The notes under the pieces: generated by a model
What the model was told of the DNA's origin: nothing
Database searches by the model: none
The model's input: the letters and a program-made list of their open reading frames with translations, nothing else
DNA from: a virus
DNA: 39,573 nucleotides
Strand: one strand, 5' to 3'
IMG/VR virus record: IMGVR_UViG_3300033075_000869
In this document: one piece after another, positions 2,606 through 29,766 of the stretch
Layout of the letters: each line of letters starts with the position of its first letter
Numbering within the stretch: position 1 is the first letter of the stretch
Program-made: the position numbers and the translations under genes

Positions 2606-2608
2606 CAA

Positions 2609-7443: not shown

Positions 7444-7683
7444 ATGTCAATAGAACGTAAATACGAATCAATCATAGCCGACCTAACGCATCAGCTATAT
7501 CGTGCTCGACTTATTTCGCGTGGTTGGAAGAAACTAGCGAAACTTGAGCGAGCAACAATCGTCCAAGCAGCGGTTGAATCTGCTGCTGGTGATTGGGATG
7601 ATGATGGTCAAAGAGATCGCGTTATTCAACATCATCTTGAGAAGTTTTCAAGCATTAGAGAAACATTGCGAAATCCGAAATGA
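7444..7683 (+). CDS. hypothetical protein
   Basis: ORF of 79 aa. Its upstream intergenic region carries a copy of the CTTCATCCACG motif. Confidence 0.45.
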   Translation: MSIERKYESIIADLTHQLYRARLISRGWKKLAKLERATIVQAAVESAAGDWDDDGQRDRVIQHHLEKFSSIRETLRNPK

Positions 7684-8314: not shown

Positions 8315-9090
8315 CAACCAAAAATCTATTGACTCGCATGAAAGGCTATGAAGAAGCATCAAGGATGATTCTTCCTGGTCGTTCACCTGTTATTCTCCGT
8401 CTCGACGGAAAGTCGTTCTCAACGTATACTCGTTCCCTGGGAACTTTTAATCACTCATTCGCATGGTTGATGAAAGAAACAGCGGTTGCTGTGTGTAAGC
8501 ATATCCAGGGCGCAACGTTCGCTTACACCCAATCTGACGAAATATCAATTTTGATTCACTCTTATAAGAAGCTGAATTCTGAACCGTGGTTTGAAAACTG
8601 TGTTCAGAAGATGGTTTCTGTTTCGTCTTCAATTGCTGCAGTTACATTTACGTTGGGATCACCACAACTTTTTAAGGATGTGTTGGCCGAACCTCGGGCC
8701 GAGGATGCCCGCCCGGCATATTTTGATGCCCGTGTATTTGTCGTTCCAGAAAATGACGTTGTGAATTATTTCGTCTGGCGTCAACAAGATGCAACACGAA
8801 ATGCAATGTCTATGTGGGCTCGTTCACTTTTCTCAGCGAAAGAGATTCATGGGAAAAACTGGCAACAGATGCGTGAGATGTGTGAAACCCGTGGTGTTAA
8901 GTGGGACGCTCTTTCTCCTCAATTTACACGTGGAACCGGAATATCACGCGTCGATGGTCATTGGACAATCGACGATGAAACGCCACTGTTTACTACGAAC
9001 AGGGACTACATCGCTCGGCATCTCGAACTAGAAGAAGGCTTACGTGAAGCTGTATTACGGCCCACGAGATGGCCCACGTATTACCCGTGA
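8311..9090 (+). CDS. Thg1-like protein (tRNA-His guanylyltransferase family, 3'-5' nucleotidyltransferase)
   Basis: RLDGKSFSTYTR and AYTQSDEISIL motifs typical of the Thg1/TLP palm domain; about 260 aa. Confidence 0.7.
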   Translation: MTTKNLLTRMKGYEEASRMILPGRSPVILRLDGKSFSTYTRSLGTFNHSFAWLMKETAVAVCKHIQGATFAYTQSDEISILIHSYKKLNSEPWFENCVQKMVSVSSSIAAVTFTLGSPQLFKDVLAEPRAEDARPAYFDARVFVVPENDVVNYFVWRQQDATRNAMSMWARSLFSAKEIHGKNWQQMREMCETRGVKWDALSPQFTRGTGISRVDGHWTIDDETPLFTTNRDYIARHLELEEGLREAVLRPTRWPTYYP

Positions 9091-9109
9091 TTAATGATGG
9101 TGGTTATAT

Positions 9110-9133
9110 ACCAACTATCATGTTGGTGTTTTT
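9110..9133 (+). terminator. Terminator-like hairpin ACCAAC-tatcat-GTTGGT followed by GTTTTT
   Basis: 6-bp stem, 6-nt loop, T-run. Sits just after the Thg1-like stop. Confidence 0.35.
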
Positions 9134-9135
9134 GT

Positions 9136-9154
9136 GTTTACACTGTGTGTAAAC
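9136..9154. promoter_or_regulatory. Inverted repeat GTTTACAC-tgt-GTGTAAAC upstream of gene 9183
   Basis: Perfect 8-bp arms with a 3-nt spacer in the intergenic region. Candidate operator. Confidence 0.3.
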
Positions 9155-9182
9155 GTAACCCAATGAGGAATAATATAGAACT

Positions 9183-9641
9183 ATGAATGAGAAAAATTTG
9201 ATTAATTTGGTTATTGGTGACTGGAGTGGCGATGGGCATTGCCAAACTGAAACGATTCAGGTCGAATCATCATTGAATAAAAATGAGTTGCAAGTTGCTT
9301 ATGAAGCTGCCGCAAAGAAGACAAAAGTTCGCCTTGTTGAGGCTGTTGTGTCAGACTATGAAGACAATATGATTTCAGAGACAGATTTCAAAAAGTTGCA
9401 AAAGGCCGGCATTGTTATGGATGAAATCTTCTTCAAAGACGAAGAGGGGAATTGGGATTATTCACTTGATGCAACAAGTTTTGCTATGTTGTATCTAGAA
9501 ATGATCAAGATTGTCAATCCGGCATTTAAATATGCATTCCCAGACGTTCCTACGATTCGGATTGGTGGATATGGATTGTTCCCGTTATGTTTAAATATAA
9601 ATTTGTTCGATCAATTTTGTCCGGACGAGCGATGGGTCTGA
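9183..9641 (+). CDS. hypothetical protein
   Basis: ORF of 152 aa. Confidence 0.5.
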   Translation: MNEKNLINLVIGDWSGDGHCQTETIQVESSLNKNELQVAYEAAAKKTKVRLVEAVVSDYEDNMISETDFKKLQKAGIVMDEIFFKDEEGNWDYSLDATSFAMLYLEMIKIVNPAFKYAFPDVPTIRIGGYGLFPLCLNINLFDQFCPDERWV

Positions 9642-9808
9642 TTTTTCTATGGTTCGTGACAATCGTGGTAATTGATATTATTGCGTTTCAAAATGAACCG
9701 TGGTCATTGATTGCAGCTTTTATTTGCGACGTTGTCGTTTTGTTCATGTGGTTTTATCATCCCGAAGAGAAAAAATTACATTATGAATCGTCATGTTCTA
9801 ATCATTGA
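9587..9808 (+). CDS. small 2-TM membrane protein
   Basis: Two hydrophobic helices (LIFLWFVTIVVIDIIAF and LIAAFICDVVVLFMWF). Confidence 0.35.
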   Translation: MFKYKFVRSILSGRAMGLIFLWFVTIVVIDIIAFQNEPWSLIAAFICDVVVLFMWFYHPEEKKLHYESSCSNH

Positions 9809-10661
9809 TGGTATGAATTTCTTGCATCGGGCTCGTAGTGGATTTGCTATGGGCCCTGCACCTGTTGTATACAATTTCATGCGAAACTTCCGTGCAATTG
9901 TTGAACAGTTCGCGCCTGATTACATTTATTTCGTTCTTGAGGGTCATCCTCAGCAACGAATTGATGCCCTTCCACAATACAAAGCGAATCGGCAGGTTGA
10001 AGCAGACAGTGCAGCACATGAAGAACAGAAGAAGTTTTTCAAGCAAGTTGATCATATCATCGAACTTCTTGGTGTATCGTTTCCTGTTAGAGTTGTTCGT
10101 CATCCTGAACTAGAGTGTGATGATGTAATTTATGACCTGGTAAGTGATCCGACCTGGATTATTGACGACAGTTATCCAGATCCATATGAACTAAAGTATA
10201 CTGTCGTATCTAACGATTCAGATTTTACGCAATTGCTTTGCGAGTTTGACAATGTTTCTGTGTATAATCCTATGTTGAAGAAATATGTTGAGAAGCCGGA
10301 TTACGATTACGTAACGTGGAAAGCTCTACGTGGTGACGGGTCTGACAACATCCCTGGAATCCCTGGTATTGGTGACGTGACTGCAACGAAAGCGATGGAT
10401 GATCCTGAATTGTTGCGAGAAATTCTGTCTCGTAATGGTGCTGCAGAGATTTTTCAACGTAATGTAAATCTGATCAAATTTATCACGATCAAAGACACTG
10501 AAAAAGGCAAGGTTGAACACCTGGGTGTAATGTGGAATACCCACAAAAGTTGGGAACCACTACGACAAGCGTTTGAAAAATATGGATTTCAGTCGCTACT
10601 GAAGCCTGAAGCTTGGCAGAAATATATTGGAACGTTTCATCATCAATTGCACGTTGCGTAA
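9783..10661 (+). CDS. 5'-3' exonuclease / flap endonuclease (T5 exo / T4 RNase H type)
   Basis: N-terminal LIIDGMNFLHRA (compare LLVDGNNLAYR) and acidic clusters. ATG 9783 verified; the track ORF starts at 9711. Confidence 0.7.
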   Translation: MNRHVLIIDGMNFLHRARSGFAMGPAPVVYNFMRNFRAIVEQFAPDYIYFVLEGHPQQRIDALPQYKANRQVEADSAAHEEQKKFFKQVDHIIELLGVSFPVRVVRHPELECDDVIYDLVSDPTWIIDDSYPDPYELKYTVVSNDSDFTQLLCEFDNVSVYNPMLKKYVEKPDYDYVTWKALRGDGSDNIPGIPGIGDVTATKAMDDPELLREILSRNGAAEIFQRNVNLIKFITIKDTEKGKVEHLGVMWNTHKSWEPLRQAFEKYGFQSLLKPEAWQKYIGTFHHQLHVA

Positions 10662-10667
10662 TCGATT

Positions 10668-10922
10668 ATGAAAACCGGTCTATTTACTCCGCGACCGGGA
10701 GATTTGTTCACTTGGCATCATGATTCAGACGATGGTTTGTGTCGTCGTGGTGAAAAGATTTGGTCTTCATCTAAGAATGATTGGGTGTCATGTGTTGGCA
10801 TCAATATTCTAATCTCACTAACTGAAACTGATGTGTGGTGGATTGATAAAATTAATCTTATTCACTCGCGATATGGTGAAATTGATATCAATCATCTTCA
10901 TCCACGTACGAATAAAACTTGA
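10668..10922 (+). CDS. family A small paralog
   Basis: MKTGLFTPRPGDLFTWHHDSDD...LIHSRYGEID...HLHPRTNKT. Confidence 0.6.
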   Translation: MKTGLFTPRPGDLFTWHHDSDDGLCRRGEKIWSSSKNDWVSCVGINILISLTETDVWWIDKINLIHSRYGEIDINHLHPRTNKT

Positions 10923-10973
10923 TATCAATTTGAGTTAGACTTACGATATAGTTACTCTTAGCAAGAGGGTAAC

Positions 10974-11477
10974 ATGTCGTCAAAACTTTTCAAATTGTTG
11001 GGTTACATTTGGTCAGCACCAGTCACGGCGTTTGGCCTATTGTACGTTCTGTTCATGTCACTAATGGGTTGGTATCGTTGGTGGGGAGTTGAAAGTGACG
11101 CGCTAGTCTGGATTGTCAATGTTGAAAAGGCGCCTGATTGGGTCTTGAAACGTTGGGAAAAATGGGGCGGACACACTGTTGGTAACGTTGTCGTTCTGAT
11201 TAAAGATCCGGATGAGAAACACGTTATCTTGACGCATGAACTTGTACACGTTCGTCAATGTATGATTCTAGGTGTGTTTCAGCCAATCATGTATGCGTTG
11301 ATTTACTTGTCAATCAAGACGTCATGCAAGCATAGTGATGCATATTTTGATAATTCATTCGAAATTGATGCACGTCGCGGGTGTGGCCAAACAATTGATA
11401 TTGTTGGCGCACAAAAGAAAAAAGAAGAAGCTGCTAAAAAAGCAGTCGAAGAGGCAGCAAATGCATCCGATCGTTAA
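10974..11477 (+). CDS. membrane protein with HExxH zinc-peptidase-like motif
   Basis: N-terminal TM segment, then THELVHVRQ (HExxH). SD-like AAGAGGG lies 4 nt upstream. Confidence 0.45.
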   Translation: MSSKLFKLLGYIWSAPVTAFGLLYVLFMSLMGWYRWWGVESDALVWIVNVEKAPDWVLKRWEKWGGHTVGNVVVLIKDPDEKHVILTHELVHVRQCMILGVFQPIMYALIYLSIKTSCKHSDAYFDNSFEIDARRGCGQTIDIVGAQKKKEEAAKKAVEEAANASDR

Positions 11478-12285
11478 GAGTGTATTTAGCAACTTTACTG
11501 CAAATTTTGAAGGCAGCGTAAGTCACATGTACTTGGACGTTTTGGGCCTTGTAACTGTTGCTCGAGGAAATCTAATTGATCCGATCACAATGGCACTTGG
11601 TTTGCCTTTTGAACGTAATGGCATTAGAGTTTCAAGAGATGAAATTGCTGCTGAGTGGCGAACAGTTAAGGCACGTCAAGATCTTGCAAAGGTTGGCGCC
11701 CGTTCGTTTAAATCAATTACATCGCTACGCCTGTCGACAAAGGGAATTGATGATCTTGTTATTTCTAAGTTGCTAGAAACAGAAGCATATCTCAAGAAGC
11801 GATTTCCAGAATTTGATACGTGGCCGGCAGATGCTCAACTCGGTGTTCTTAGCATGGCATGGGCGATGGGCGCAGGATTCAAATTCAAGACTTTTGAAGC
11901 TGCAGTTCTAAAACGTGATTTCGTTGGTGCAGCGGCTGCATGCAAAATGAATGAAACCGGTAATCCCGGGTTGATTCCTCGAAATGCAGCCAACAAATTG
12001 CTCTTTTTGAATGCTGCTCGTGTTCTAGAGTCTCCGGAAGCATACAAGATCGAAACGTTGTATTGGCCGGATCGCCTTCCAGATGTTCCGGTGCAAAAGG
12101 AACCTGATCATATCGATGTTACGTTTGTTGATGAAGTTCCACAAGTCGATTCGGGTGATGCTGTTACAAATCCTCGTGTAGATATTGTCGTACCAGAAGA
12201 TACGGGTGTTGTAAAATCACCTGGGCTGTTTGATCTAGTTATGGGATTCTTTAAATTTCTACTTTCACTTCTAGGTAAAAAATGA
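11461..12285 (+). CDS. T4-type (GH24) lysozyme with C-terminal extension ending in an amphipathic/hydrophobic helix
   Basis: FEGSVSHMYLDVLGLVTVARG aligns residue-for-residue with T4 lysozyme E11/D20/T26 ([20 protein letters not shown]). C-terminus GLFDLVMGFFKFLLSLLGKK. ATG 11461 verified. Confidence 0.65.
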   Translation: MHPIVKSVFSNFTANFEGSVSHMYLDVLGLVTVARGNLIDPITMALGLPFERNGIRVSRDEIAAEWRTVKARQDLAKVGARSFKSITSLRLSTKGIDDLVISKLLETEAYLKKRFPEFDTWPADAQLGVLSMAWAMGAGFKFKTFEAAVLKRDFVGAAAACKMNETGNPGLIPRNAANKLLFLNAARVLESPEAYKIETLYWPDRLPDVPVQKEPDHIDVTFVDEVPQVDSGDAVTNPRVDIVVPEDTGVVKSPGLFDLVMGFFKFLLSLLGKK

Positions 12286-13106
12286 TAGACATAAAACTTG
12301 GTGGTTGGCGACCAGATTCTACGCTTGCAGAGCATAATCCCAATGACAATTACATGTTTGATGATCATGAGACAAAAATTCTCTCTGCAGGTTCAAACGT
12401 ATATGATCCTGGCATTGAACACAACGGGATTCTTGATCTTCGAAAGTGGTGTTCACCCGTTGAACACCAGAGTGCTGCTGGGTCTTGTGTTGGCAATGGC
12501 GTCGTTGGTGCTCTAGAATTTCTACAGATTCGAAACGGTCAACCATATCAAGACTTGTCACGCTTGTTCGTATACTACAATTCACGATTGATGCACAAAA
12601 GTCAAGAGAAAGATGAAGGAACTTATATTCATCTTGCTTTTGGAACATTGTCTTCATTGGGTACGTGTTCAGAAGAAAAATGGCCTTATGATCTCACGAA
12701 ATTGTTTATTAGACCGTCATGGGGATCATATCGAGAAGCATATCCTAACAAAATCGACAGTTATTACAGCATCGGTGGCACCGGTCAAACACGAATTGAT
12801 TTTATCAAGCGTGCCCTAAGAGCTCAACACGTTGTTGTGTTCGGAATGATTGTTGATCAAGCATATATGAATTATGCCGGCGGACGAGTTGATATGCCAC
12901 AGAAAACCCGAGTGAATTCTGGAGGGCATTGTCAAGTTATTGTTGGTTATGATGACAATACGCAGTGTTGGATTGTACGAAATTCGTGGGGCACAGGTTG
13001 GGGCGACAAGGGATATGCATATGTTCCATATGCATATCTAGATGCATCTGATGCCAATGATTTTTGGGTTCCCTTTTTGCCCGGTTCGTCAATGGAGAAC
13101 GGTTGA
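12282..13106 (+). CDS. papain-like (C1 family) cysteine peptidase
   Basis: QSAAGSCVGNG (Q...GSCW catalytic Cys), GGHCQVIVGYD (catalytic His) and NSWGTGWGDKGY (papain NSWGTGWGENGY). Confidence 0.75.
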   Translation: MIDIKLGGWRPDSTLAEHNPNDNYMFDDHETKILSAGSNVYDPGIEHNGILDLRKWCSPVEHQSAAGSCVGNGVVGALEFLQIRNGQPYQDLSRLFVYYNSRLMHKSQEKDEGTYIHLAFGTLSSLGTCSEEKWPYDLTKLFIRPSWGSYREAYPNKIDSYYSIGGTGQTRIDFIKRALRAQHVVVFGMIVDQAYMNYAGGRVDMPQKTRVNSGGHCQVIVGYDDNTQCWIVRNSWGTGWGDKGYAYVPYAYLDASDANDFWVPFLPGSSMENG

Positions 13107-14033: not shown

Positions 14034-14269
14034 AAACACGTCTCAAATTTCATGTATTTCCGGGTGATATTCCTAAACGTAACAAAATTGCGATGATGGA
14101 AAATCAGGATGCTGAACTTGCTATTGAAACATACGGTGGATTGAAAACACAGAAGAAGCGTCGTAAATCATATAAACGAATGATTCTGAGTAAAGAACGC
14201 GCAGTGTTGAAACGTCGAGAACAAAATGAAATCAAAAATTCGACATCTTCTGAAGAATTACGTTACTGA
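14030..14269 (+). CDS. small basic protein
   Basis: K/R-rich 79-aa ORF (KKRRKSYKRMILSKERAVLKRREQ). Confidence 0.4.
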   Translation: MKTRLKFHVFPGDIPKRNKIAMMENQDAELAIETYGGLKTQKKRRKSYKRMILSKERAVLKRREQNEIKNSTSSEELRY

Positions 14270-14759
14270 AATTGTCAAAGGAACCGAAGGTCATACAACG
14301 GGTCTGCTTCAAGGTTCAGTATCGACGTCAGTATATGCAGGTAATGTGCTGCGTGATGAAGAAGAAAATGAAAAGAAACTAAAGCGAGCTGTATGTCTGC
14401 TGGTTAAACATCCATCATTGCCAAATATATACCTTGCTGTTTCCCGCAAAGATGATCCCAACGATATGGGCCTTCCTGGTGGGAAAGTAGACGATACTGA
14501 TGTGTCTCTTGAAGACGCTGCTGCAAGAGAACTTCAAGAAGAAACTGGCTTGATAGCAACACATATTTCAAGTCCTATTTTTGTTCGATCGGCTGATGGT
14601 GAATATACTTGCACCACATTTGCAGCAACAGTTGCTGGGAATATTGAAACAGAAGAATCTGGCGTTGTTCGTTGGGTATCACCTGAAGAACTTGTTGCGG
14701 GTTGTTTTGGTGAATATAATAAGTTGATGTTTAAGAAATTGGGAATCAAATATGAATAA
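14226..14759 (+). CDS. Nudix hydrolase with N-terminal MKSKIRHLLKNYVTEIVKGTE motif
   Basis: Nudix box GGKVDDTDVSLEDAAARELQEETGL, nearly identical to MutT GGKIEMGETPEQAVVRELQEEVGI. Confidence 0.75.
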   Translation: MKSKIRHLLKNYVTEIVKGTEGHTTGLLQGSVSTSVYAGNVLRDEEENEKKLKRAVCLLVKHPSLPNIYLAVSRKDDPNDMGLPGGKVDDTDVSLEDAAARELQEETGLIATHISSPIFVRSADGEYTCTTFAATVAGNIETEESGVVRWVSPEELVAGCFGEYNKLMFKKLGIKYE

Positions 14760-15153
14760 CGCCAAAAACATTAATGATCGCAAGAAATCAAAGCCAGACA
14801 GAGAGCCTAGATCTCCTAAACCAAAAATCAATATGGAGACTGCGCCTGACGCAATTGTTGATGGTAAACTTGTTGTTCCTGTTGGTACACGAGTTGTTAT
14901 TCCACGTATTCGATCAAATAAGAAGATTCTATCATTTGGTCTCATTGATAGGGTTGAACGTGGCGCTGTGTATGTCTGGGATGAAACTCTAACACAATGG
15001 TTTGTGTTCAAGTTGTCTGATCCTGTTGTTGTGAAAGTATATTCGTTGCCGCTCAAGTCAACTATTGAAGCGACTACAAAACCGGTCGTTGAAGCAGTGT
15101 CTGAAAAACAACTGTCATATGTAATTTCACAAGATGCTTCTTCAGAAACTTGA
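14752..15153 (+). CDS. hypothetical basic protein
   Basis: ORF of 133 aa. It overlaps the convergent protease gene by 80 nt. Confidence 0.45.
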   Translation: MNNAKNINDRKKSKPDREPRSPKPKINMETAPDAIVDGKLVVPVGTRVVIPRIRSNKKILSFGLIDRVERGAVYVWDETLTQWFVFKLSDPVVVKVYSLPLKSTIEATTKPVVEAVSEKQLSYVISQDASSET

Positions 15154-15889
15154 TAAGCTCATCATGATGTATAAAGAATGAAATGTTTGGACCTTGTGGT
15201 GCAACCCAAGAGGCAATTCCAACGAGATTTCCGTCATCATCAAATGCACCGCCACCACTATTACCACGCCATGTTGCAGATGAAATTTGCATTGCATGTG
15301 TAGTGATCTGATCTGGCCCTTTAATACTGCCCCACGAAGTTGAAACAGTACCTTCGCAATATGACCACCATAGGCCAATTGTATGACCTACGATGTGAAC
15401 TCGCGTACCATCTGGTACAGAATCGATTCCTTTTACATTCGCAACTAGGTGACCTCGAGGCGTATCTTTTGCTAGAATCAATGCAAGATCTTGTGTGTGA
15501 CTCACCGCAATAACTGTTCCTCTTCGAACAGATACTGGAAAATTATTTGGTGTTGATAGATTAACATCGCCTTTGACAACATATTGTAGTTCAACACCGA
15601 CGGAATCAAATTCATCAGATTCAATTTCGAATATGCTACCAACAAGTGCTCGACCATACATTTCAACACAGTGATTCGCAGTTAGGATCTTATCATCAGA
15701 AATCCAGACGCCTGTACAATATGGAGAATGATCACCATCACCATCAGTTTTTGTTAGAGCTACAGTTACAGACTTTAGATTTTCAACCAGTGCGACTCGG
15801 CTGGGTTGAACGGGTGGTTGTGTCAATGAACCTTGCATCGCGCAACCAAACAAAACGATTGCCAACAACCACAAGAAAAATTTTTTCAT
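15074..15889 (-). CDS. trypsin-like (S1 family) serine protease, lipoprotein
   Basis: Signal peptide MKKFFLWLLAIVLFGC (lipobox LFGC). Catalytic His in TANHC, Asp in DLALI, Ser in GNSGGGAF. AAGAGG sits 9 nt upstream of the ATG. Confidence 0.8.
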   Translation of the reverse strand: MKKFFLWLLAIVLFGCAMQGSLTQPPVQPSRVALVENLKSVTVALTKTDGDGDHSPYCTGVWISDDKILTANHCVEMYGRALVGSIFEIESDEFDSVGVELQYVVKGDVNLSTPNNFPVSVRRGTVIAVSHTQDLALILAKDTPRGHLVANVKGIDSVPDGTRVHIVGHTIGLWWSYCEGTVSTSWGSIKGPDQITTHAMQISSATWRGNSGGGAFDDDGNLVGIASWVAPQGPNISFFIHHDELIKFLKKHLVKLHMTVVFQTLLQRPVL

Positions 15890-16996: not shown

Positions 16997-17226
16997 TTGA
17001 ATTTACTGGATCTAATCCACGTGTTCCTCTGTACAGATATTCTGAAGGAGATCCATCTGGAGGACCAGAACATGATTTCTATTTGTACATGAATACAACT
17101 TTCATGATTGTTTCGGCAGTAAATACAACCCATCGTGAATCACACGTAGATTACTTTGTAATAACTGAAGGTGGTGGTATGGGTTGGACAATGTGGTATC
17201 CTAAAAATTTCAAGATTATCAAATGA
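16957..17226 (+). CDS. PGT-motif small paralog (IAPGTLCYA...MGWTMWYPK)
   Basis: Paralogous to 16700-16996. Confidence 0.5.
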   Translation: MVIAPGTLCYATLIEFTGSNPRVPLYRYSEGDPSGGPEHDFYLYMNTTFMIVSAVNTTHRESHVDYFVITEGGGMGWTMWYPKNFKIIK

Positions 17227-18179
17227 AACATCCAAATCCAAATATGTTGTTGCACATTGCCATGGGCGATGCATATGCTACTGCAGTCGAATATGTTAAG
17301 CGAGAAAAACACGCTCAACTGTATGATGCTGCACTGCGATTTCAAACATATCTACAACACCCTACGCACCTAAAACTCAAACCGGGTATGTATACCGATG
17401 ACACACAGCAAAGTATTGCTGTCGTAGAAGTTTTGTTGGGAACACAAGCACCACGTGTTCCAGATTTTCTAAATGCATTTTACGACGTATTCAAACGTGA
17501 CCCTCGTGATGGATATGCTCGTGGATTTCAAGGTCTAATTGAATCTGTTGAATCACGTGATGAATTTCGTTCGAGGATCATTCCAAACTCTAATAAAAAT
17601 GGCGCAGCAATGCGCTCTGTCCCAATTGGCGTCATTAAAGACGTAAATCAACTTGTCGATATCGCTGGGGTTCAAGCCACTGCTACCCATGCAACATGGG
17701 GTGGAATCAACAGTGCAGTCGCTGTTGCTCTTATGTCGCATTTTGCGCTATATGATCATCGTAATTTTCTATACATGAGAGAATGGTGTGCACGATATTC
17801 GTCTGCATTTCAGTTTTTTGGGTCACCATGGTCTGGTCCGGTCGTTAGTGACCCAAAAAATCCCAAAGACATGGGTGTTGGTATGAATACTGCATGGGCT
17901 GTTTGCACATTGCTCGAACAAGAAACATCATTGATGGGAATAATGCGGCGCGTAATTGAATGGGGCGGTGATACTGATTCTGTTGCAGCAATCGCGTGGG
18001 GAATAGCGGGAGCTCGTTACGGTCATGAAATTCTACCAAGCTTCCTAGAACACGATCTTGAACCAGGTTCTCGATATGGCGTTCAATTTCTAAAAGACCT
18101 AGGTGAACGCTTGATGACGGTTGAAAAATTGTCTTATGTAAAACACCCATTATTTGTGGTAAAGTTACTTATACTCTAA
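17223..18179 (+). CDS. ADP-ribosylglycohydrolase (ARH/DraG family)
   Basis: N-terminal GDAYATAVE, TDDTQQS and C-terminal GGDTDSVAAIAWGIAGARYG signature motifs. Confidence 0.8.
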   Translation: MKHPNPNMLLHIAMGDAYATAVEYVKREKHAQLYDAALRFQTYLQHPTHLKLKPGMYTDDTQQSIAVVEVLLGTQAPRVPDFLNAFYDVFKRDPRDGYARGFQGLIESVESRDEFRSRIIPNSNKNGAAMRSVPIGVIKDVNQLVDIAGVQATATHATWGGINSAVAVALMSHFALYDHRNFLYMREWCARYSSAFQFFGSPWSGPVVSDPKNPKDMGVGMNTAWAVCTLLEQETSLMGIMRRVIEWGGDTDSVAAIAWGIAGARYGHEILPSFLEHDLEPGSRYGVQFLKDLGERLMTVEKLSYVKHPLFVVKLLIL

Positions 18180-18197
18180 CGTAGTGCCAATAAAACA

Positions 18198-19526
18198 ATG
18201 AAAAAACGACGTTACAAAAGTGCGAAGATTAAGTCGGTACCGGGCGCAATTGAAATTGAAAAGTCCTTCCTGACACAGGTCAAAGAGTTGATGAACCTGG
18301 GCCAAGTTAAGAAAACAATTCATGTCGGAACCGAATTGTTTGGTGCTATTTCACCGTTTCTTGACAAACCTGACTGGTGGAACGGTTGTAAAGCCGCGTT
18401 TGCAGTTGGTAAAGTTTTGATTGACGAAGTTGAAATTTGGTCAGATGATTATTTCTCTGGCGAAGAGTGGAGTATGCCATATTCGCGAGATTTTAATCAA
18501 ACGATTCTTTCAGCTATTTCTGGTTACCCGTTTCAAGTTGTTCGAACGAGTGACGAAAATAGTATGATCAAACTTGTTGACCTTGAAGGCATCAAAGTTG
18601 GTTATACTGTTAATACACGCTCTTCGCATATTGACAATATTTTTGTTGAAACTGCAAAGCTAAAAGAGGCGCGCGATCACATCAAAAAGTTGCTTTGGGA
18701 ATCCTTGAAAGATTCAAATATTGTGATGCGTCAAAATAAGCGTATGCTTCTTCAAGAAGAAGAGTCTCGTGTTATTTTTGAATCAGATGATGCATTTCAT
18801 CCGCTAAAGTCTGCTCGAGCAACAGATTATTCTTCTTACTTGAAACGTTGCATTGACGCAAACGTCTCTAGGTCTGTGATGTTGTATGGTCCTCCCGGAA
18901 CTGGTAAGTCGACGATGGCACGAACGATCGTCGACACTTTGAATATGCGTTCGTTCAGAATTCGTGTTGAGGACGTTGCTGGAATCGAAAGTTCGACGCT
19001 TTTTGAAGCTGTTAGCATCTTTGAGCCAGACGCAATCATCTTGGATGATTTTGACCGGGCACATGCGCAGGCCCAATTGCTCGAAACGCTTGAGTTTTTC
19101 CAGCGTCATGTTAAGATTGTTATTGCAACAGTCAATGATCGAAATAGTTTGGATGAAGCTATTCTACGACCTGGTCGATTTGACGAGCTTGTGTTTGTCA
19201 AGCAAATGGACGAAGACGTTGTCAAGCACGTCCTTGGGCCTGCGCTTGAAGATGCATTTGACATTGTCAAAGATTGGCCAATTGCATTCATTCAGGAATA
19301 CGCAAAGAGGCGACGTTTCATGAGCGCTGAAGAGGCGGCGGTTTCTACAGCCGAACTAGCTGATCGAGTTAAGCGTCTTCAAAAATACGATGACTTGTCC
19401 GATGTTGAGCGAATGCTAGCTGCTAGGAAACGTCTTGGTATTGCTACAGAAGACAACGTTGACGACCTAGATGATTCTGACCCAGACCTTGAAGATGGTG
19501 AAACCCCTTTTGTAGAGCCGGCATAA
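18198..19526 (+). CDS. AAA ATPase (classic clade), with a possible -1 frameshift extension to 19750
   Basis: Walker A GPPGTGKST, Walker B IILDDFD and the second region of homology ILRPGRFDELVFV. Confidence 0.85.
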   Translation: MKKRRYKSAKIKSVPGAIEIEKSFLTQVKELMNLGQVKKTIHVGTELFGAISPFLDKPDWWNGCKAAFAVGKVLIDEVEIWSDDYFSGEEWSMPYSRDFNQTILSAISGYPFQVVRTSDENSMIKLVDLEGIKVGYTVNTRSSHIDNIFVETAKLKEARDHIKKLLWESLKDSNIVMRQNKRMLLQEEESRVIFESDDAFHPLKSARATDYSSYLKRCIDANVSRSVMLYGPPGTGKSTMARTIVDTLNMRSFRIRVEDVAGIESSTLFEAVSIFEPDAIILDDFDRAHAQAQLLETLEFFQRHVKIVIATVNDRNSLDEAILRPGRFDELVFVKQMDEDVVKHVLGPALEDAFDIVKDWPIAFIQEYAKRRRFMSAEEAAVSTAELADRVKRLQKYDDLSDVERMLAARKRLGIATEDNVDDLDDSDPDLEDGETPFVEPA

Positions 19527-19746: not shown

Positions 19747-20682
19747 ATGATTGGTGTTTGTTGTCAGTGGCTTGAGCGTATTAAACGTCCAAGATCTGGT
19801 GATTATCAATATGTGAACGTTGTCGATGAACGTTCACTTCAACTTGGTAGGTACATAGCAGGAAAATATACACCTGAGCAAATTAGTGCTACGTACTTGC
19901 ATAACATCAATAATTTGATACGTATGTTGCCACGAATTTCACGTTCTGGCATACGTTTGTTTCGAATATCTTCTTCGTTGTTTCCCCTCGCTGACAAAGT
20001 TGATCGTGCGCATTGGGATAATGATGCTGTTCGAACACAATTGAAATGTGTTGGTGATATTATTAAGTCACTTCAACTACGTGTTACAACGCATCCTGGC
20101 CAATTTTGTGTTTTGTCGTCAGATTCTGATCGCGTAGTTGAAAATTCATTCAATGAATTGGCGCTTCATGGTTGGATATTTGACGTTATGGGTCTTGATC
20201 GTTCACCACAATATGCTATCAATATTCACGGTGGTAAGTCAGACAGGTCGTCTAGGCTTATTGAACAGATCAAATCTTTGCCACAGTCTGTTTCGTCACG
20301 ATTGACACTTGAAAATGACGAGTCTGCATATTCACTTATTGATTTGTTGACTGTACACAAAGAAACCGGTGTTCCTGTCGTTTGGGATTCGCATCATCAT
20401 ACATTCAATGATGACGGAATTTCTCTTAGCGATGCCTATACATTGTCAAGGCTAACGTGGCCATCTGGCGTTATGCCACTGCAACATATTAGCAATACCG
20501 AGCCGAGTTCAAGTGATGGTTCATTTACAGAACGTCGTAAACACAGTAATATGATTCATTATATTCCGGATGCTCAACTTCAAGGTCTGCGTGATGGCAA
20601 CGTTGCGTGTGAAATTGAGGCAAAAATGAAAAATATCGCTGTTGACCATATGGTTAATATCTTTGGTCTGACACGATTATAA
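19747..20682 (+). CDS. uvdE: UV damage endonuclease (UvdE)
   Basis: TTHPGQFCVLSS, INIHGG, RLTLENDE and VVWDSHHH match the UvdE TIM-barrel signature. Confidence 0.75.
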   Translation: MIGVCCQWLERIKRPRSGDYQYVNVVDERSLQLGRYIAGKYTPEQISATYLHNINNLIRMLPRISRSGIRLFRISSSLFPLADKVDRAHWDNDAVRTQLKCVGDIIKSLQLRVTTHPGQFCVLSSDSDRVVENSFNELALHGWIFDVMGLDRSPQYAINIHGGKSDRSSRLIEQIKSLPQSVSSRLTLENDESAYSLIDLLTVHKETGVPVVWDSHHHTFNDDGISLSDAYTLSRLTWPSGVMPLQHISNTEPSSSDGSFTERRKHSNMIHYIPDAQLQGLRDGNVACEIEAKMKNIAVDHMVNIFGLTRL

Positions 20683-21025: not shown

Positions 21026-22687
21026 ATGTTTAATGACATTGACGTTCCCAATACAACAAAAGTACTATTTCATAATGAAGCTAGAAGAAAATTGTATGTT
21101 GGACTTTGTGTTGCTGCTGAAGCAGTTACATGTACACTTGGACCACGTGGTCGAACAGTGCTAATTCAAAGCAAGGGCGGTCCACCAACTGTGACCAAGG
21201 ACGGTGTTACAGTTATTAAGTCAATTAGGCTCAAAGATCCTATTGAAAAAATGGGTGCTGAACTAATACGAGAAGCAGCGTCACAAACCAATGAAGTGGC
21301 TGGTGATGGGACTACAACGGCTACGGTTCTGACCCACTCGATGGTCAAGGAAGGCCTCAAACTATTGGAAGCTGGGTATTCTGCCAAGGAGTTGTGCGAG
21401 GGTATTCAATGGGCTCGAGAGTTGGTTGATAACGAACTAAAGAAATCTGCACGTGTTTTGAACACTTCAGCTGAAATTGCTCAGGTAGGAACTATCAGTG
21501 CGAACGGTGATACGAAAATTGGTGAATTGATCGCTGAAGCAATGGAAAAAGTTGGCCGTGACGGTATCATTACCGTTGAAGACGCAAAAGGAATGGCAAC
21601 GACCCTTGAAGTTGTAGAAGGTATGCAATTTGAACGTGGGTATATGAGCCCATATTTTGTAACCAATCCAGAACGAATGAATGTTTCATATCAAGAAGCA
21701 CTAGTTCTTGTAACTGACAAGAAACTATCTGGATTGCGAGAGCTAGTTCCAGTTCTAGAAAAGGTTGCAGGTTCGCGTAAACCGTTGCTCATTATTGCAG
21801 ATGACGTTGAAGGTGAAGCACTTCAGGGTTTGGTCATCAACCGTGTTAACGGTAATCTACCGCTAGTTGCCGTGAAAGCACCGGGATATGGTAAACATCG
21901 TGACGAGTTGCTAGCCGATATTTGTACATTGACAGGTGCTAAACTAGTTTCGTCTTCAACTGGCGTTAAGTTTGATACGTTGACACTAGCTGATTTGGGT
22001 GTTGTAAAACGCCTGGTTGTTGATGCGAAGTCAACAACCCTTGTGGGCTCAGGTGCAACCAAATCGAAAATTGATGAACATGTTGCAAATTTGCGCACTC
22101 AACTAGAAGATGTTACTATTTCCACAGAAGAAGTTGTGAAGCTAAAGACGAGAATCGCGAAGCTGGCGTCGGGTGTTGCGGTCATTCGTGTCGGCGGTGC
22201 AACAGAAGTTGAAATGATTGAGCGTAAATACCGTATTGAAGACGCACTAAATGCAACACGAGCAGCCGCAGAAGAAGGCATTGTAAAGGGCGGTGGAATG
22301 GCACTTGTTGATGCGTATCATAGTCTTGCGTCAACCCTTGCTGGTCTTTCATCTAATACAACTGTGCTAGCAGGTGCAAATATTGTTATGGCGGCTTGTC
22401 TTGCACCACTTAGCAAGATTGCGGCAAATGCCGGGAAGACGCCTGAAGTCATTCTAGAACGTGTTGATTCTGGACGCTTCCTATCTGATATTCAATACCG
22501 CGGTTGGGATGCTTCGTCTGGAAAAGACGTGGATATGTTCCAGGCAGGGATTATCGATCCTGTTAAGGTTACACGTACAGCTCTTAAAAATGCTGCATCT
22601 GTTGCAATTACGTTTCTAACACTTGATGCAGTTGTAGTTGAAGAACAATCGTCTAACAAAGAAGATAATCTTGAAAAACACGCCTGA
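21026..22687 (+). CDS. groEL: chaperonin GroEL
   Basis: Full-length collinear match to GroEL: [45 protein letters not shown] and others. Confidence 0.95.
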
Positions 22688-25252: not shown

Positions 25253-25510
25253 ATGCTAACAATAAGCGTTGGTCAACTACGCAAGCTAATCAAAGAAGAA
25301 GTATTTCGTAATCTTGCATGGTCTGCAGGATTCTTTGGAAGTGGTCTAAATGGTGCAAGTAGTAATACGTCAAGTGGGACAGCAACTGTTCCACCTGGTC
25401 TTGGTGACGAAGAAGAAAACATAGAAAATGAAGAAAAAGAACAAGAAGAACTCGAATACCTCAGTCAACGTGGCGCAGCAGCAAATTCTCGAAAGGGAGG
25501 ACGCTATTGA
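25253..25510 (+). CDS. small acidic protein with N-terminal [15 protein letters not shown] motif (internal-protein-like)
   Basis: 85 aa with a Gly/Ser-rich middle and an acidic E-rich tail. The N-terminus carries the shared LRKLIxE motif. Confidence 0.5.
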
Positions 25511-25772
25511 ACTTCACGGAATCATTGAAGAGGCTCTGCCGGGAACATGGTTTCGTGTAACATGTGACAATGGTCACAGTGTGTTGGCGACACTGTCTGG
25601 TAAGTTGCGGATAAATCATATCCGCTTGCTGCCTGGTGATAAGGTGTCTGTTGAAGTTTCGCCTTATGATCTATCTCGTGGTCGTGTTACATACCGACGT
25701 TTAGATAGGCACATATGCGCCTCCAAAGAATCATTGCATTTGTTGGAGGCGTTTTTGTATTTAATGTTCTAA
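25428..25772 (+). CDS. infA: translation initiation factor IF-1 homolog with N- and C-terminal extensions
   Basis: [64 protein letters not shown] is near-collinear with E. coli IF1 ([64 protein letters not shown]). The exact start is uncertain. Confidence 0.8.
25719..25762 (+). terminator. Intrinsic terminator: 8-bp stem GCCTCCAA/TTGGAGGC followed by GTTTTTGTATTT, lying inside the last codons of the IF-1 ORF
   Basis: Perfect inverted repeat at 25719-25726 and 25743-25750, then a T-rich run. Confidence 0.5.
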
Positions 25773-25786
25773 TATACGACGGATAC

Positions 25787-25854
25787 GCCAATTGTCTATT
25801 GGCAATACTCATGACACAACTAGCCATATGGCTAAGTTCACCAATTCTAGAATT
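25787..25854. repeat. Cluster of three palindromes in a convergent intergenic region: GCCAAT-tgtct-ATTGGC, TAGCCATATGGCTA, AATTCTAGAATT
   Basis: Found at 25787-25803, 25821-25834 and 25843-25854, between convergent IF-1 (+) and the minus-strand gene. Confidence 0.4.
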
Positions 25855-26689
25855 ACGCTGCGCTCTCTTCTTTGTTCATGTAATTAACATGAGCTAGCAC
25901 TTCTTTATGACGTGCTTGAAGCGTTGTGTATATAATTTTTGATTCAGCTTTCCATTCAGCAGAAAGTTGTTTCATGCCATGTCCTTGTAGCTCATCATAA
26001 ATTTCGTCAGAAGTTGAACTCAAAATTGAGCTAATGGTCGACCATGGAACTGATGAAAAAGTTGCACCAGCTTCCTGTAGATCTCCATATTGAAACACTT
26101 TGCCAGAACCACCAAAATCAGGCTTAAGCATTGTCTCAAGTTCACCAGGCTTGTTTCCAAATTTTGAGCCCTTACGACCACCTTGTGCTCTAAATGTAAG
26201 TGAACCACCAGGATCGATGCGGGTTGCAACATCTTTATCAACAATGATATTGCCTGAACCAGTTCCTATTACGTCCCAATTTGCCAAGAAGATATCTACG
26301 TATATACCTGCTGTCAACATTTTTGCTAGTTTCTTAGGATCTGTTCGAACGTCACCTGCCATCTTGCCCGGAATAGCAGACGTTGCCAGTCCAACTTTTG
26401 CACCTTTGGTGTCATAAACTAGTTCGATTTTAGGAATGTTAACGCCTTCATAAAGTGAATATACCTTATAAGCAAGGTATTCAACCAAGATTTGCAATGA
26501 AGGATTAACATCGTCAATCAGACTTTCGTCTGTGAACTTAAGATAATATTTGTCTCCACCAATTGAACACGTTTTCATAATGTGTGTTGAACCGGTTGCA
26601 AAACATACATCACCAACATCTTCAATGTTGATTTCATTCAAAATCGATTCTCTAATTAGTTGACGTAGTGTTTCAATATTTATATACAT
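25853..26689 (-). CDS. hypothetical protein with N-terminal MYINIETLRQLIRE motif; possible atypical kinase-like fold
   Basis: ATG 26687-26689 verified; the track ORF uses TTG at 26719. Motifs GSTHIMK...YYLKF, DIFLANWDVIGTGSGNIIVD and RIDPGG vaguely resemble PI3/4K- or HipA-like catalytic and DFG loops. Confidence 0.5.
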   Translation of the reverse strand: MYINIETLRQLIRESILNEINIEDVGDVCFATGSTHIMKTCSIGGDKYYLKFTDESLIDDVNPSLQILVEYLAYKVYSLYEGVNIPKIELVYDTKGAKVGLATSAIPGKMAGDVRTDPKKLAKMLTAGIYVDIFLANWDVIGTGSGNIIVDKDVATRIDPGGSLTFRAQGGRKGSKFGNKPGELETMLKPDFGGSGKVFQYGDLQEAGATFSSVPWSTISSILSSTSDEIYDELQGHGMKQLSAEWKAESKIIYTTLQARHKEVLAHVNYMNKEESAA

Positions 26690-26715
26690 TTGACGTGTGT
26701 TCCTTTTTGATTTAA

Positions 26716-29115
26716 TCAAAAACTGTGTTCTTGAAACCCAAATTTTGATTTCAACTTAGATTTTGATGTTGACCAATAAATTTGTGTAACTTTTATCTGA
26801 CCAATTCCAATAGCTTCATCTTCTTGAGTATGAGAATCAAATCCCGGGACTTTATAAAGTCCACCTGGGCCAAGAACAAACTTGTTAGGATTATCATCTG
26901 TTGCGGCAACAAGAAATATTGAATAACCGTCATCACTATTTGCAAAGCTCAAAGCTTGTTCACGGCTAATAGACCAACTTGTTACACCACGATTTTCTTT
27001 AGGCGTAAATGTAAAAGATGCTTCTTTGTGACCATTTTCATCAAGATCGTCTTGATTGTCAATTTTTAGTGCAGACATTAGCCATTTTTTATTAACACTC
27101 ATTCCCCTATAAACGAATTCTTGTGTTGGTTTTTTAAAGATTGAATCATATTGATCAGTTGCCAAAATTTGGCTTATTTCATTTGCAAGTTCTTGTTTGA
27201 TCGGGGTGTTATCCTTGAAGTGAGCAACTAGTGCAGTATAAAGTTCTTGTTCTCGCGCAGTATCAACTTCAATTGGCAATTGAAAACGCTTTTCTGCAAA
27301 TGCATATTGATTTAGAATTGCGTCTTCAGGTGCTTCAGGTGGATTCTTTTTTATTATTTTTCTTTTTTCTACTTCAAATTCTTTAATATAAGGCTCTAGA
27401 ATTTTTTCAATTTTTTCAATTACATTTTGTCGTTCTGATTCTGATGTTGAATTCCACGCAGATACTAGATCATTTTTATGATCAACAGGATAGTGTTTAT
27501 CACTACCCGATGACATTGAATACACAATTGTAAACCAGTTAGAGTCAATATCATTGTCAAAAAATTTATTCCGCAGTTCAGTTTTTTTATCGTATTTGAT
27601 ATTTGCTGATACAGCAAGTTTTCGCAATGTTGACATTGTTTCTAGAAACAATGGATCTTTAAGTACTGTATTAGTCGAAATGATTTTATCGACTTTGTCT
27701 TCAAGCATCTTTAGAGAATGCATTCCTTCATCAGTATCATGATCCACATTTCCAATTTTAAATGCACTTTCAAGCGTTTTATAAAAATTTTCTGTGATTT
27801 CACTTGGTTGAGTTCTAAGCAAACTTGCAATCTTTGCTCCAAATTTCCATACAGGTATTTTATTGTATTCATCAGCATCGAGTGTTATAAGTTTTCGAAT
27901 AATGCTAATTATGAGCAAAAATCTATCTTTTTGATTATTACTCAATGAATATGATTCAATTTTTTTCAAATCAGATTTGACTTGATCAATGTTTGTTTTT
28001 AGAGTTTGTATAAACGATTGTGATTTACTACGCTCGGCACAAGCATCAGTATATGTCTTTGTAAATGAACGTGGTGATTCTGAAAATGCACTAGAAATTA
28101 GTTTTCTTGTAAAGCTATCGCCAACACTATTTGTAATCAAAGAAACAAATGTTGGATCAGAAGGTGAATTTTTAATCAATTCAAAAATTTGGGTCAAGTC
28201 GTTCTGAATTGACCAAGTTTTAATGGCAACTATTTCGTTGGCAATGTTGTTTAGAATTTGTTCAGTATCATTTAGTAGAACTTCATATGCTTTTGTAGCA
28301 TTTTTACTGCCCGGCGATTTTGCAACTGCACGAACCAAATTATTCCAAGTATTACGTGATTCATTATGATTCTTAGAATTTAGTGTTAGCTCATGAATGA
28401 ACTCATGAAAAAAATCTACAAGACGCCAACTAAGATTATTTTCATGCTCAACACGTATAACATTTGATAGTTTTAGTTCTTCAGCAACATCTGGGGTTAT
28501 GTTTTTTGTTCTTTTAACAATTTCGTCAAATATTTGTTTTTGAAGTTTTGGATCGTTTTGATCTGATAGATCAACTGAATTGTTGAATTTTTCAAAAAAT
28601 TCATCAAGTTGTGCATCACTTAGTTTGTTCAAAATGTTATGAAAAACATGATCGACTTCATATATCGAAGCACCACTCTCATGCCAAATTTCATATGCAT
28701 CACGAAATTCATCAATAATATCACTTGATATTCCGTCAAGCGAATCTAGAATCTTAAAAACAATGCGTGGCTTTATTGCAGTGATATCCTGCTTAATCCA
28801 ATTCATGAATTTATATGTCGACATTTCAAGCAGCAGCATTGCTGTTTGGACTTTTACGCGCTTCATATGAATAATTAGGCTAAACGCATCTAAAACTTCA
28901 TAATCGTGTATTGAACGTGACGGTGCCTCTGTACAAACTTCAATTCCTGTACAACCAGATTCACATGTATGCGAATAAACCACACAGGACGTTTCAGCGC
29001 GGGAATTACGAACTTCTAGAACAGATGCAATATAAGTCCTAAGACTAGGTATCACCAAACCCGTATACCAAAATACATTCGAACATACACGAAAAAATTT
29101 TGCTTTGATTGGCAT
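26716..29115 (-). CDS. large (799 aa) protein with N-terminal Cys cluster and C-terminal R-S-E ADP-ribosyltransferase-like domain
   Basis: C-terminal about 180 aa: FVYRG (Arg), about 44 aa later TSWSISREQALSFA (STS-like region), about 50 aa later PGFDSHTQEDE (ARTT loop + ExE). The spacing is typical of C3/iota/Alt-type mARTs. Confidence 0.55.
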   Translation of the reverse strand: MPIKAKFFRVCSNVFWYTGLVIPSLRTYIASVLEVRNSRAETSCVVYSHTCESGCTGIEVCTEAPSRSIHDYEVLDAFSLIIHMKRVKVQTAMLLLEMSTYKFMNWIKQDITAIKPRIVFKILDSLDGISSDIIDEFRDAYEIWHESGASIYEVDHVFHNILNKLSDAQLDEFFEKFNNSVDLSDQNDPKLQKQIFDEIVKRTKNITPDVAEELKLSNVIRVEHENNLSWRLVDFFHEFIHELTLNSKNHNESRNTWNNLVRAVAKSPGSKNATKAYEVLLNDTEQILNNIANEIVAIKTWSIQNDLTQIFELIKNSPSDPTFVSLITNSVGDSFTRKLISSAFSESPRSFTKTYTDACAERSKSQSFIQTLKTNIDQVKSDLKKIESYSLSNNQKDRFLLIISIIRKLITLDADEYNKIPVWKFGAKIASLLRTQPSEITENFYKTLESAFKIGNVDHDTDEGMHSLKMLEDKVDKIISTNTVLKDPLFLETMSTLRKLAVSANIKYDKKTELRNKFFDNDIDSNWFTIVYSMSSGSDKHYPVDHKNDLVSAWNSTSESERQNVIEKIEKILEPYIKEFEVEKRKIIKKNPPEAPEDAILNQYAFAEKRFQLPIEVDTAREQELYTALVAHFKDNTPIKQELANEISQILATDQYDSIFKKPTQEFVYRGMSVNKKWLMSALKIDNQDDLDENGHKEASFTFTPKENRGVTSWSISREQALSFANSDDGYSIFLVAATDDNPNKFVLGPGGLYKVPGFDSHTQEDEAIGIGQIKVTQIYWSTSKSKLKSKFGFQEHSF

Positions 29116-29163
29116 AAATGAATAATACTATACGTTCTGCTAGAAGTACTAGCTACATATAAT

Positions 29164-29463
29164 ATGAAAATCAGATTGGGTACGCTAAGAAAAATAATAC
29201 GTGAAGCTGGAGGTTGGGCCTCGCCACCACAACCAGCAGGCAGGAATTCTTTTTCTTCCGATATCACCAATCGTGAACAAATTGATCGTCTAGATATAGT
29301 CGATAATGACCGCCAACAAATAACATCACATCTGGAAGACCCTACAGAAGATCCTGAGGACTGCTTTGGTCCCGTTCCGCCGATTTCAGATCAAATTGAT
29401 ATACATCAAGACCCATTTTCCAGGGACTATGGGCCAATCCCACATCCAAATGTGGGTAGATGA
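29164..29463 (+). CDS. small acidic protein with N-terminal MKIRLGTLRKIIRE motif (internal-protein-like)
   Basis: 99 aa with acidic Asp/Glu-rich stretches (e.g. EDPTEDPED, pI estimated low). The N-terminus carries the shared motif. Confidence 0.5.
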   Translation: MKIRLGTLRKIIREAGGWASPPQPAGRNSFSSDITNREQIDRLDIVDNDRQQITSHLEDPTEDPEDCFGPVPPISDQIDIHQDPFSRDYGPIPHPNVGR

Positions 29464-29766
29464 TTAACACGAACGTTTACGAACAATTTCAGTAATCAAT
29501 TGATCAATTTGTAGACGAGTTGTTGCAAGGTCAACAATGTCAACATGTCGTACTTGATGCCATAGAGCCCAACGTTTATTTCCGATCGGACCCGTTCCAT
29601 TTACTTCGTTAGGTTTCACAAAAAAGAAAACTGGTTCTAGGAACACACTATCTTCACGAGTTTCTATAATTCGCCATATTGCGCTCTCTGTTGATTTTGG
29701 CGTAAAATAATCAGTAATGAAATTTACGTAATCTCCTAGCGCAAATTGTTCACTAATCTTGTTCAT
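29464..29766 (-). CDS. hypothetical protein
   Basis: ORF of 100 aa. Confidence 0.4.
   Translation of the reverse strand: MNKISEQFALGDYVNFITDYFTPKSTESAIWRIIETREDSVFLEPVFFFVKPNEVNGTGPIGNKRWALWHQVRHVDIVDLATTRLQIDQLITEIVRKRSC

Follow-up and report, generated by a model that had tools for sequence, protein, structure and literature searches.

The 39,573-nucleotide (nt) virus sequence IMGVR_UViG_3300033075_000869 from IMG/VR, referred to below as the window, encodes on its minus strand a long protein whose C-terminal ~200 residues are likely to be a catalytically competent mono-ADP-ribosyltransferase of the R-S-E (cholera-toxin-like) type. In this reading, which we hold with good confidence, the domain is carried by an accessory gene of an uncultivated phage and most likely serves as a host-takeover effector, possibly delivered in the virion with the 278-amino-acid (aa) product of the adjacent gene. 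Taken separately, it is very probable that the domain is an ADP-ribosyltransferase (ART)-fold enzyme of the R-S-E type making use of nicotinamide adenine dinucleotide (NAD+), and there is about an even chance that it modifies arginines of host proteins as a takeover effector. We observed the predicted fold, the conservation of the motifs, the size and architectures of the family, the insertion status of the gene and the presence of the neighbour's domain in ART proteins of virions, and these observations are described below.

Motifs, predicted fold and conservation of the ART domain

According to the open reading frame (ORF) list of the window, the minus-strand ORF at 26716-29115 encodes 799 aa when counted from its first ATG. 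An earlier note on this DNA had pointed to the interval 26716-27330, which corresponds to residues 596-799 and the stop codon of this frame, as an ART-like domain with a series of R-S-E motifs. This series was found near the C-terminus, with FVYRG, TSWS and QEDE all present at the claimed spacing. QEFVYRG contains R670; VTSWSISREQALSFA contains S713 (codon 26977-26979), 43 residues after R670; and KVPGFDSHTQEDE contains E765 (26821-26823) and E767 (26815-26817), the latter 54 residues after S713. When the window ORFs of at least 100 aa were scanned with a relaxed R-S-E pattern, [FYW]RG-x(30-60)-[ST]S.[ST]-x(35-70)-E.E, one match was obtained versus a mean of 0.003 in 300 residue shuffles, indicating that the motifs in the 799-aa protein are not due to chance.

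An AlphaFold 2 model computed from a four-sequence alignment was discarded (predicted local distance difference test, pLDDT, 44.6), and the ART domain was modelled from 49 standalone homologues (pLDDT 94.2; predicted template modelling score 0.88). The predicted structure has the canonical R-S-E layout, in which R670 is placed on the first core strand, S713-W714 on the next core strand ahead of a helix, and E765 and E767 at the start of a later strand that follows a long loop. The top 50 Foldseek matches of the model in the PDB were all ART-fold proteins, with weak E-values of 3e-3 or worse. In a fold search of BFVD, the best matches were uncharacterised proteins, one of them from the jumbo Ralstonia phage RP12, and further hits (E = 2e-5 to 2e-3) bear portal, minor capsid or head morphogenesis annotations and appear to contain a region resembling an ART; the top 50 of this search included neither T4 Alt nor Mod. 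Because the layout of the model and the fold searches agree, we assigned the domain to the ART fold and to the R-S-E type, without a close characterised relative. The fold and motif features of the R-S-E (ARTC) clade are present: a predicted ART fold (split beta-sheet core with an NAD+ cleft), an Arg on the first core strand after an aromatic or hydrophobic residue, an S-T-S-type motif ahead of a helix and an ADP-ribosylating turn-turn (ARTT) motif.

Conservation was counted in an alignment of the best 152 of 724 family representatives (pairwise identity at most 50%). R670 is invariant (Table 1), it is followed by G671 in 151/152 representatives, and the residue before it is Y or F in 138. At the serine motif, W714 was found in 152/152 and S713 in 141/152, and the two glutamates of the ExE are nearly as constant (E765 in 149 and E767 in 151 of the 152). 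Y656 (152/152), Y754 (150/152) and N742 (147/152) are conserved as well, and the family has a further N-terminal segment with A605, F606, R610, P614, E616 and E622 (A-F-x3-R-x3-P-x-E-x5-E). The ARTT motif, X-X-phi-X-X-E/Q-X-E, defines substrate recognition in cholera-toxin-type ARTs and ends in the catalytic Glu (PMC8120803). The family agrees with this definition: position 762, which corresponds to phi, is occupied by Y (60 representatives), F (46) or H (23), 129/152 together, and E767 is the predicted catalytic glutamate.

The earlier note had voiced a doubt that the divergent SWS in place of STS could void the ART call. This doubt is removed, as [ST]-S-W-[ST] is the signature of the family and its tryptophan is invariant. 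The note had also held that the call would fall if no ART fold were predicted; an ART fold is predicted, and the R, S and ExE positions are invariant or nearly so across the 152 representatives.

Phage ARTs are a classic means of host takeover, as in T4 Alt, ModA and ModB, and the earlier note had likened the window domain to these enzymes. The likeness stands as an analogy of mechanism and does not extend to membership in the Alt/Mod family. PF03496 (Alt-VIP2) matched neither the window protein nor the 49 family members, and PF18760 (ART-PolyVal) matched neither the window domain nor these members. The hhalign comparison with T4 Alt gave a probability of 0.3%, that is, no profile similarity. 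Against a ModA+ModB profile, 103 columns were aligned with a probability of 5.7% and a pairwise E-value of 0.0067; this alignment is not significant, but it puts YRG/WRG, SSW/SAS, A..F and ExE/EQE in register.

Table 1. Positions of the ART frame, its motifs and associated genes in the window
Feature	Position	Strand	Remarks
ART domain, residues 588-799 of the 799-aa frame	26719..27354	-	Conserved N-terminal segment, two helices, then six-strand core
R670 codon, the R of R-S-E, in F-V-Y-R-G-M	27106..27108	-	152/152 representatives; in model strand 80-87
T712-S713-W714-S715, STS counterpart, [ST]-S-W-[ST]	26971..26982	-	Model strand 124-128, then helix 131-136
ARTT-type motif D760-S-H762-T-Q-E765-D-E767, X-X-phi-X-X-E-X-E	26815..26838	-	Opens model strand 180-184
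N-terminal region, residues 84-587, ~500 aa, lineage-specific	27355..28866	-	Shared only with P0002-P0004, P0007 and P0008; weak partial match to P0009
First 83 codons, small Cys-rich coding segment, C-x6-C-x3-C-x5-C	28867..29115	-	In frame here; separate 79-aa ORF in L001
278-aa gene, conserved in the lineage	25853..26689	-	Starts 26 nt past the ART stop codon, behind an AAGGA motif
ADP-ribosylglycohydrolase (ARH/DraG superfamily)	17223..18179	+	PF03747 ADP_ribosyl_GH, E = 2.1e-32; plus-strand cluster

Family size, architectures and the start of the frame

Neither the 799-aa protein nor its C-terminal domain had any match in Pfam, PHROGs, NCBIfam or PADLOC. The 49 family members gave no consistent family in Pfam or PHROGs, each chance-level match being confined to one member, and two PDB sequence-profile searches returned zero matches. 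Megablast of the locus against GenBank phages also returned zero matches, and tblastn with the window protein, the family consensus and the members P0052 and P0162 found nothing in 50,697 GenBank phage records. A word-indexed search recovered only three orthologues (84, 57 and 46% identity). When the 212 C-terminal residues were used as a profile in an exhaustive HMMER search, 724 cluster representatives were recovered at E<=1e-3, 135 of them at E<=1e-30. The ART domain is a new family of a well-known kind, and this family is large and has so far been seen only in metagenomes, in phage-like contexts among the loci examined.

Among the 152 aligned representatives, 48 are standalone domains (250 aa or less), 92 are longer proteins that end in the domain and 4 are double-copy proteins; two ART domains in one polypeptide were found in P0005, P0006, P0040 and P0079. 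The genes also occur in tandem. Locus L004 contains five adjacent paralogous ART genes (7523-11250) and a sixth nearby (2212-3315), and two adjacent copies each are present in L006 (594-3060) and L012 (1651-3026). HNH and GIY-YIG homing-endonuclease genes lie near the ART genes in L004 and L012. The genes of P0052 and P0162, two unrelated members, are directly upstream of genes for T4 gp13-like neck proteins, gp15-like proteins and sheath proteins. That a phage encodes an ART is in itself unsurprising, as surveys show that ARTs are common in large phages. What is new is a large enzyme family that is unrecognised by Pfam, PHROGs, NCBIfam, PADLOC and PDB sequences and is tandemly multiplied in other phages. 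With a family model, hundreds of proteins labelled 'hypothetical' in metagenomic phage contigs would become enzymes that can be tested, and two features, the conserved R/E segment at the N-terminus and the invariant Trp of the STS motif, provide handles on the modified target.

Upstream of the ART domain, residues 84-587 had no match in Pfam, PHROG or NCBIfam. In the orthologues P0004, P0007 and P0008, the first residue corresponds to M84 (ATG at 28864-28866), and in L001 the preceding segment is an ORF of its own (79 aa, 556-795) with a stop codon 12 nt ahead of the main ATG. Because the orthologues start at M84 and L001 has the separate ORF, the protein is probably 716 aa long, with M84 as the true start. 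The '799-aa protein' of the earlier note therefore exists as a frame, while the mature protein is probably the shorter one. The segment of 83 codons ahead of M84 is near-identical between orthologues that are otherwise 57% identical, and the substitutions relative to L002 numbered 11, 6 and 28 at codon positions 1, 2 and 3, respectively; because of this bias to the third position, we regard the segment as coding. A non-coding RNA in the conserved first ~250 nt was considered as well and rejected, as there was no tRNA and no Rfam match and the third-position bias was present. Judging from these comparisons, the 83 codons are probably a separate small gene that is fused in frame here.

The frame is preceded by a 48-nt intergenic stretch (29116-29163) that separates it from a divergent 99-aa gene. 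This stretch does not vary among three loci, the flanking proteins of which share 46-84% identity, and it holds a GCTAG...CTAGC inverted repeat and a TATAGT element. The motif had no second copy in the window and no Rfam match, and a promoter and terminator scan of 25600-29600 gave results not better than those for shuffled sequence.

Insertion of the ART gene, the 278-aa neighbour and the ARH gene

The window has 40% G+C and densely packed ORFs. Its phage context was seen in matches to the GroEL phrog (E = 5e-152) and the RNA ligase phrog (E = 1e-35), and relatives of its genes reside on contigs of up to ~290 kb. Two related contigs share the gene order ART gene, 278-aa gene, IF-1, GroEL, UvdE, AAA and ADP-ribosylglycohydrolase (ARH). 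L014 is a more distant relative; there, the ART slot is empty and the counterpart of the 99-aa divergent gene (54% identical) directly adjoins a 277-aa gene. Because these two genes adjoin in L014, the ART gene is an accessory insertion between the 99-aa divergent gene and the 278-aa gene, or it was lost in L014. In another relative, L015, a standalone member of the ART family is located 5 kb away, and no ARH is present within 10 kb.

The 278-aa gene has 205 homologues (45-96% identity). Its product had no model in Pfam, PHROGs, NCBIfam or PADLOC, and PDB searches with the protein and with its family profile returned nothing significant. The conserved motifs are LKF, EYLAY, YVDxFLANWD, GN, RIDPGG and RAQGGRKG, the last four of which make up those of the core; the D/N-rich motifs look kinase-like, an impression from the sequence. 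The core is an internal domain of proteins of 1177-2146 aa in three cultured phages, namely Pseudomonas phage Dolphis gp117, Aeromonas phage ST4_109 and Yersinia phage fHe-Yen8-01_129 (tblastn E = 1e-9 to 1e-12; hidden Markov model (HMM) from alignment A8, E = 1e-19 to 1e-22). All three are annotated 'ADP-ribosyltransferase (toxin)', the Yersinia phage protein is also annotated 'phage particle associated protein', and the C-terminus of Dolphis gp117 is a PF03496 R-S-E ART. An annotated NUDIX hydrolase follows the ST4 gene and an annotated nucleotide phosphatase follows the Dolphis gene. Fusions of the 278-aa family also occur in metagenomic proteins: P0209 combines it with NUDIX, and P0269 with an ART-PolyVal-like domain (E = 0.0017); the N-terminal domain of P0269 is also present in P0285.

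That the product of the 278-aa gene is a partner or immunity protein dedicated to the ART was considered and, in the strict sense, rejected, as L014 and L015 carry the 278-aa gene without an adjacent ART and the ART gene is inserted. A looser functional link between the ART and the 278-aa domain survives. The core is a recurrent ART companion in virion-borne effectors, and this is the best, though indirect, argument that the window product may be a delivered host-takeover effector. The recurring combination of R-S-E ART, 278-aa-type domain and NUDIX enzymes points to an effector module.

The earlier note had also reported an ARH/DraG-family gene elsewhere in the window and had proposed that the two enzymes form a phage-controlled ADP-ribosylation cycle. 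The gene assignment was confirmed by the PF03747 match (Table 1), and the protein keeps both metal-site motifs, YTDDT and GGDTDS. Its nearest solved structures are ARH3 (1e-13), MJ1187 and DraG (2e-8), and the matches to the equivalog models of DraG (3e-15) and Tri1 (7e-11) were weak, both below cut-off. The ARH is probably an active hydrolase, and a specific tie to the ART is not supported.

The proposed cycle would make the two genes a writer-eraser or toxin-immunity pair like DraT-DraG or Tre1-Tri1, in which the ARH reverses or limits the arginine marks of the ART and thereby protects phage proteins or times a cycle. Several observations are consistent with such a pair: both genes are present in the window and two related contigs, L014 has an empty ART slot together with a protein containing a VWA domain at the ARH slot, the ARH metal motifs are intact, and the ARH is weakly similar to the arginine-specific DraG and Tri1. 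However, the ART gene lies 8.5 kb from the ARH gene, on the other strand and in another cluster, whereas the partners in the characterised DraT-DraG and Tre1-Tri1 pairs are encoded together. Both genes are variable, and they occur together only in the three contigs, which are syntenic throughout and therefore count as a single observation. No ARH was found within 10 kb at five other ART-family loci. The ARH is instead tightly linked to an AAA ATPase gene that begins 19 nt downstream (17223-19526, plus strand), and in L014 (15228-17531) the VWA-domain protein fills the slot beside the AAA ATPase that the ARH occupies in the window, so that the partner of the ARH may be the AAA ATPase and not the ART. 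The genomic context does not support a dedicated ART-ARH cycle, and we consider a pair of this kind quite unlikely.

An extended scenario joins these elements. In it, the family, with its at least 724 clusters at 50% identity, would be a major undescribed R-S-E ART group of large tailed phages that are uncultivated, and a multi-target host-reprogramming arsenal exceeding T4 Alt/ModA/ModB through tandem arrays (up to five genes) and double-domain proteins. In the lineage of the window, it would work with the companion domain (the 278-aa protein) of virion-borne polyvalent ART effectors, and a co-acquired ARH would erase the same mark. We regard this scenario as speculative and, taken as a whole, unlikely.

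Several further genes of the window were noted. It carries several parts of an NAD+/ADP-ribose network, comprising the ART, the ARH, NUDIX genes and a 2H phosphoesterase candidate. PF00293 (NUDIX) matched 2 of the 51 scanned ORFs, with the best E-value (3.9e-22) at 107-652 (plus strand), and the second NUDIX gene was assigned to 14226-14759 (plus strand) from its Nudix box. The 2H phosphoesterase candidate at 37190-37684 (minus strand) was assigned from its HxT motifs, and one scanned ORF matched PF22547 2H-SAK (1.6e-4). An RNA ligase (6351-7382, phrog_548, 1e-35), a Thg1-like tRNA-His guanylyltransferase domain (8311-9090, PF04446, 7e-26) and a 5'-3' exonuclease (9711-10661), all on the plus strand, are grouped and look like an RNA-repair gene set. 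The plus strand also encodes UvdE UV endonuclease (19747-20682), GroEL (21026-22687) and an IF-1 homologue (25428-25772); the nearest GenBank matches of the GroEL are only ~48% identical to it. A papain-like C1 peptidase (12282-13106, plus strand) and a trypsin-like protease (15074-15889, minus strand) are present. An 868-aa protein at 32914-35520 (minus strand) matches the major vault protein shoulder domain (PF11978, 1.5e-30), vault repeats and SPFH/Band 7; it is conserved in L014 (870 aa) and is unusual for a phage.

Predicted function and comparison with known systems

If the domain works like the characterised R-S-E enzymes, NAD+ would be bound by R670 and the S713-W714-[ST] motif, and E767 would promote the release of nicotinamide. 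The ARTT-type loop, with E765 two residues upstream of E767, would present the acceptor, which for an ExE arrangement is most often a protein arginine side chain. The product would then act on the host as a takeover effector, possibly after delivery in the virion together with the 278-aa protein. The positions of P0052 and P0162 near neck and sheath genes support a phage effector, as do the tandem paralogues, which recall T4 modA-modB. T4 Alt is packaged in the virion and injected, and Mod is expressed early; for the window protein, these gene positions and the neighbour's domain in particle-associated proteins are indirect hints in this direction. Phage ARTs are often virion-packaged, and ~44% are found in packaging-associated contexts (PMC9503650).

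Several points weigh against a takeover enzyme of this kind. There was no significant sequence match to any characterised ART in Pfam, the PDB or NCBIfam. The enzymatic activity, the arginine and protein specificity, the packaging and the takeover role are all predictions. No structural or packaging gene was identified near the ART gene in the window, so that the case for delivery in the virion is made here by analogy and from the domain of the neighbour. ExE predicts arginine by precedent only; the ADP-ribose adducts made by SdeA, a glutamate-containing R-S-E enzyme, serve a different chemistry, and DNA is what the Q-x-E enzymes Scabin and SCO5461 modify.

An alternative that also bears on this reading is that the protein acts mainly as an NAD+ glycohydrolase, which would drain or alter the NAD+ pool of the host, for instance to counter defences that depend on NAD. 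Some domains of the ART superfamily (KptA, RES) pass ADP-ribose to phosphate or are proposed NADases (PMC9503650), and the two NUDIX genes and the ARH of the window could process free ADP-ribose derivatives. However, the conserved ARTT-type loop with its aromatic residue and first glutamate is an acceptor-recognition feature of transferases, and tandem arrays of diverged paralogues fit target diversification better than a single small-molecule substrate. We give this alternative very little credence.

Nucleic acids could also be the acceptor. The enzyme might modify nucleic acid or attach NAD-capped RNA, for which Scabin/pierisin on DNA guanine and RNAylation by ModB are precedents, or it might act on RNA ends in the manner of Tpt1/KptA within the RNA-repair set. 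In favour of these readings, genes for an RNA ligase, a Thg1-like enzyme and a candidate 2H phosphoesterase are present in the window, and the alignment with ModA/ModB is in register. On the other hand, the family keeps R-G, S-W and E-x-E, and residue 671 is an invariant Gly, so that the Arg-His-Arg-Arg tetrad of Tpt1 (table in PMC8120803) is absent. The guanine-specific Scabin and SCO5461 have Q-x-E, in contrast to the first-position E of nearly all representatives here (149/152), and the RNA-repair genes are 20 kb from the ART gene on the other strand. Tpt1/KptA RNA 2'-phosphotransferase was rejected as an identity for the domain on these grounds: no Arg-His-Arg-Arg tetrad, Gly rather than His after the Arg, and an invariant ExE. 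For the nucleic-acid readings taken together, we consider the probability low. We keep to an R-S-E mono-ADP-ribosyltransferase, most likely a host-takeover effector, as the preferred reading.

Compared with known systems, the window domain shares with T4 ModA/ModB a phage origin, a length of ~200 aa and the same order and spacing of R-S-E, and the family forms adjacent paralogues like the modA-modB pair. As in T4 Alt, the domain is located at the C-terminus of a large protein. In contrast to ModA, ModB and Alt, the family has an invariant Trp at the STS position and an extra N-terminal segment. The cholera-toxin-like (ARTC) bacterial toxins, including heat-labile enterotoxin, pertussis S1, CARDS, Vis, C3, Tre1 and TreX, have the same catalytic triad and an ARTT-type E-x-E, but identity to them is 9-20% over ~100-125 aligned residues, and the family lacks a secretion, Rhs or B-subunit context, with phage-like contexts only among the loci examined.

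The DraT-DraG and Tre1-Tri1 systems resemble the window in combining an R-S-E ART and a DraG-superfamily hydrolase in one genome. They differ from it in that the ART and ARH genes of the window neither adjoin each other nor share an orientation, and the loci examined show no clear co-variation of the two. The proteins Dolphis gp117, ST4_109 and fHe-Yen8-01_129 combine an R-S-E ART (PF03496 in Dolphis gp117) with the core domain of the 278-aa protein. Their ART domain is of another family, which the window-family HMM does not match, and the companion that is an internal domain in these cultured phages is a separate protein in the window, encoded by the gene adjacent to the ART.

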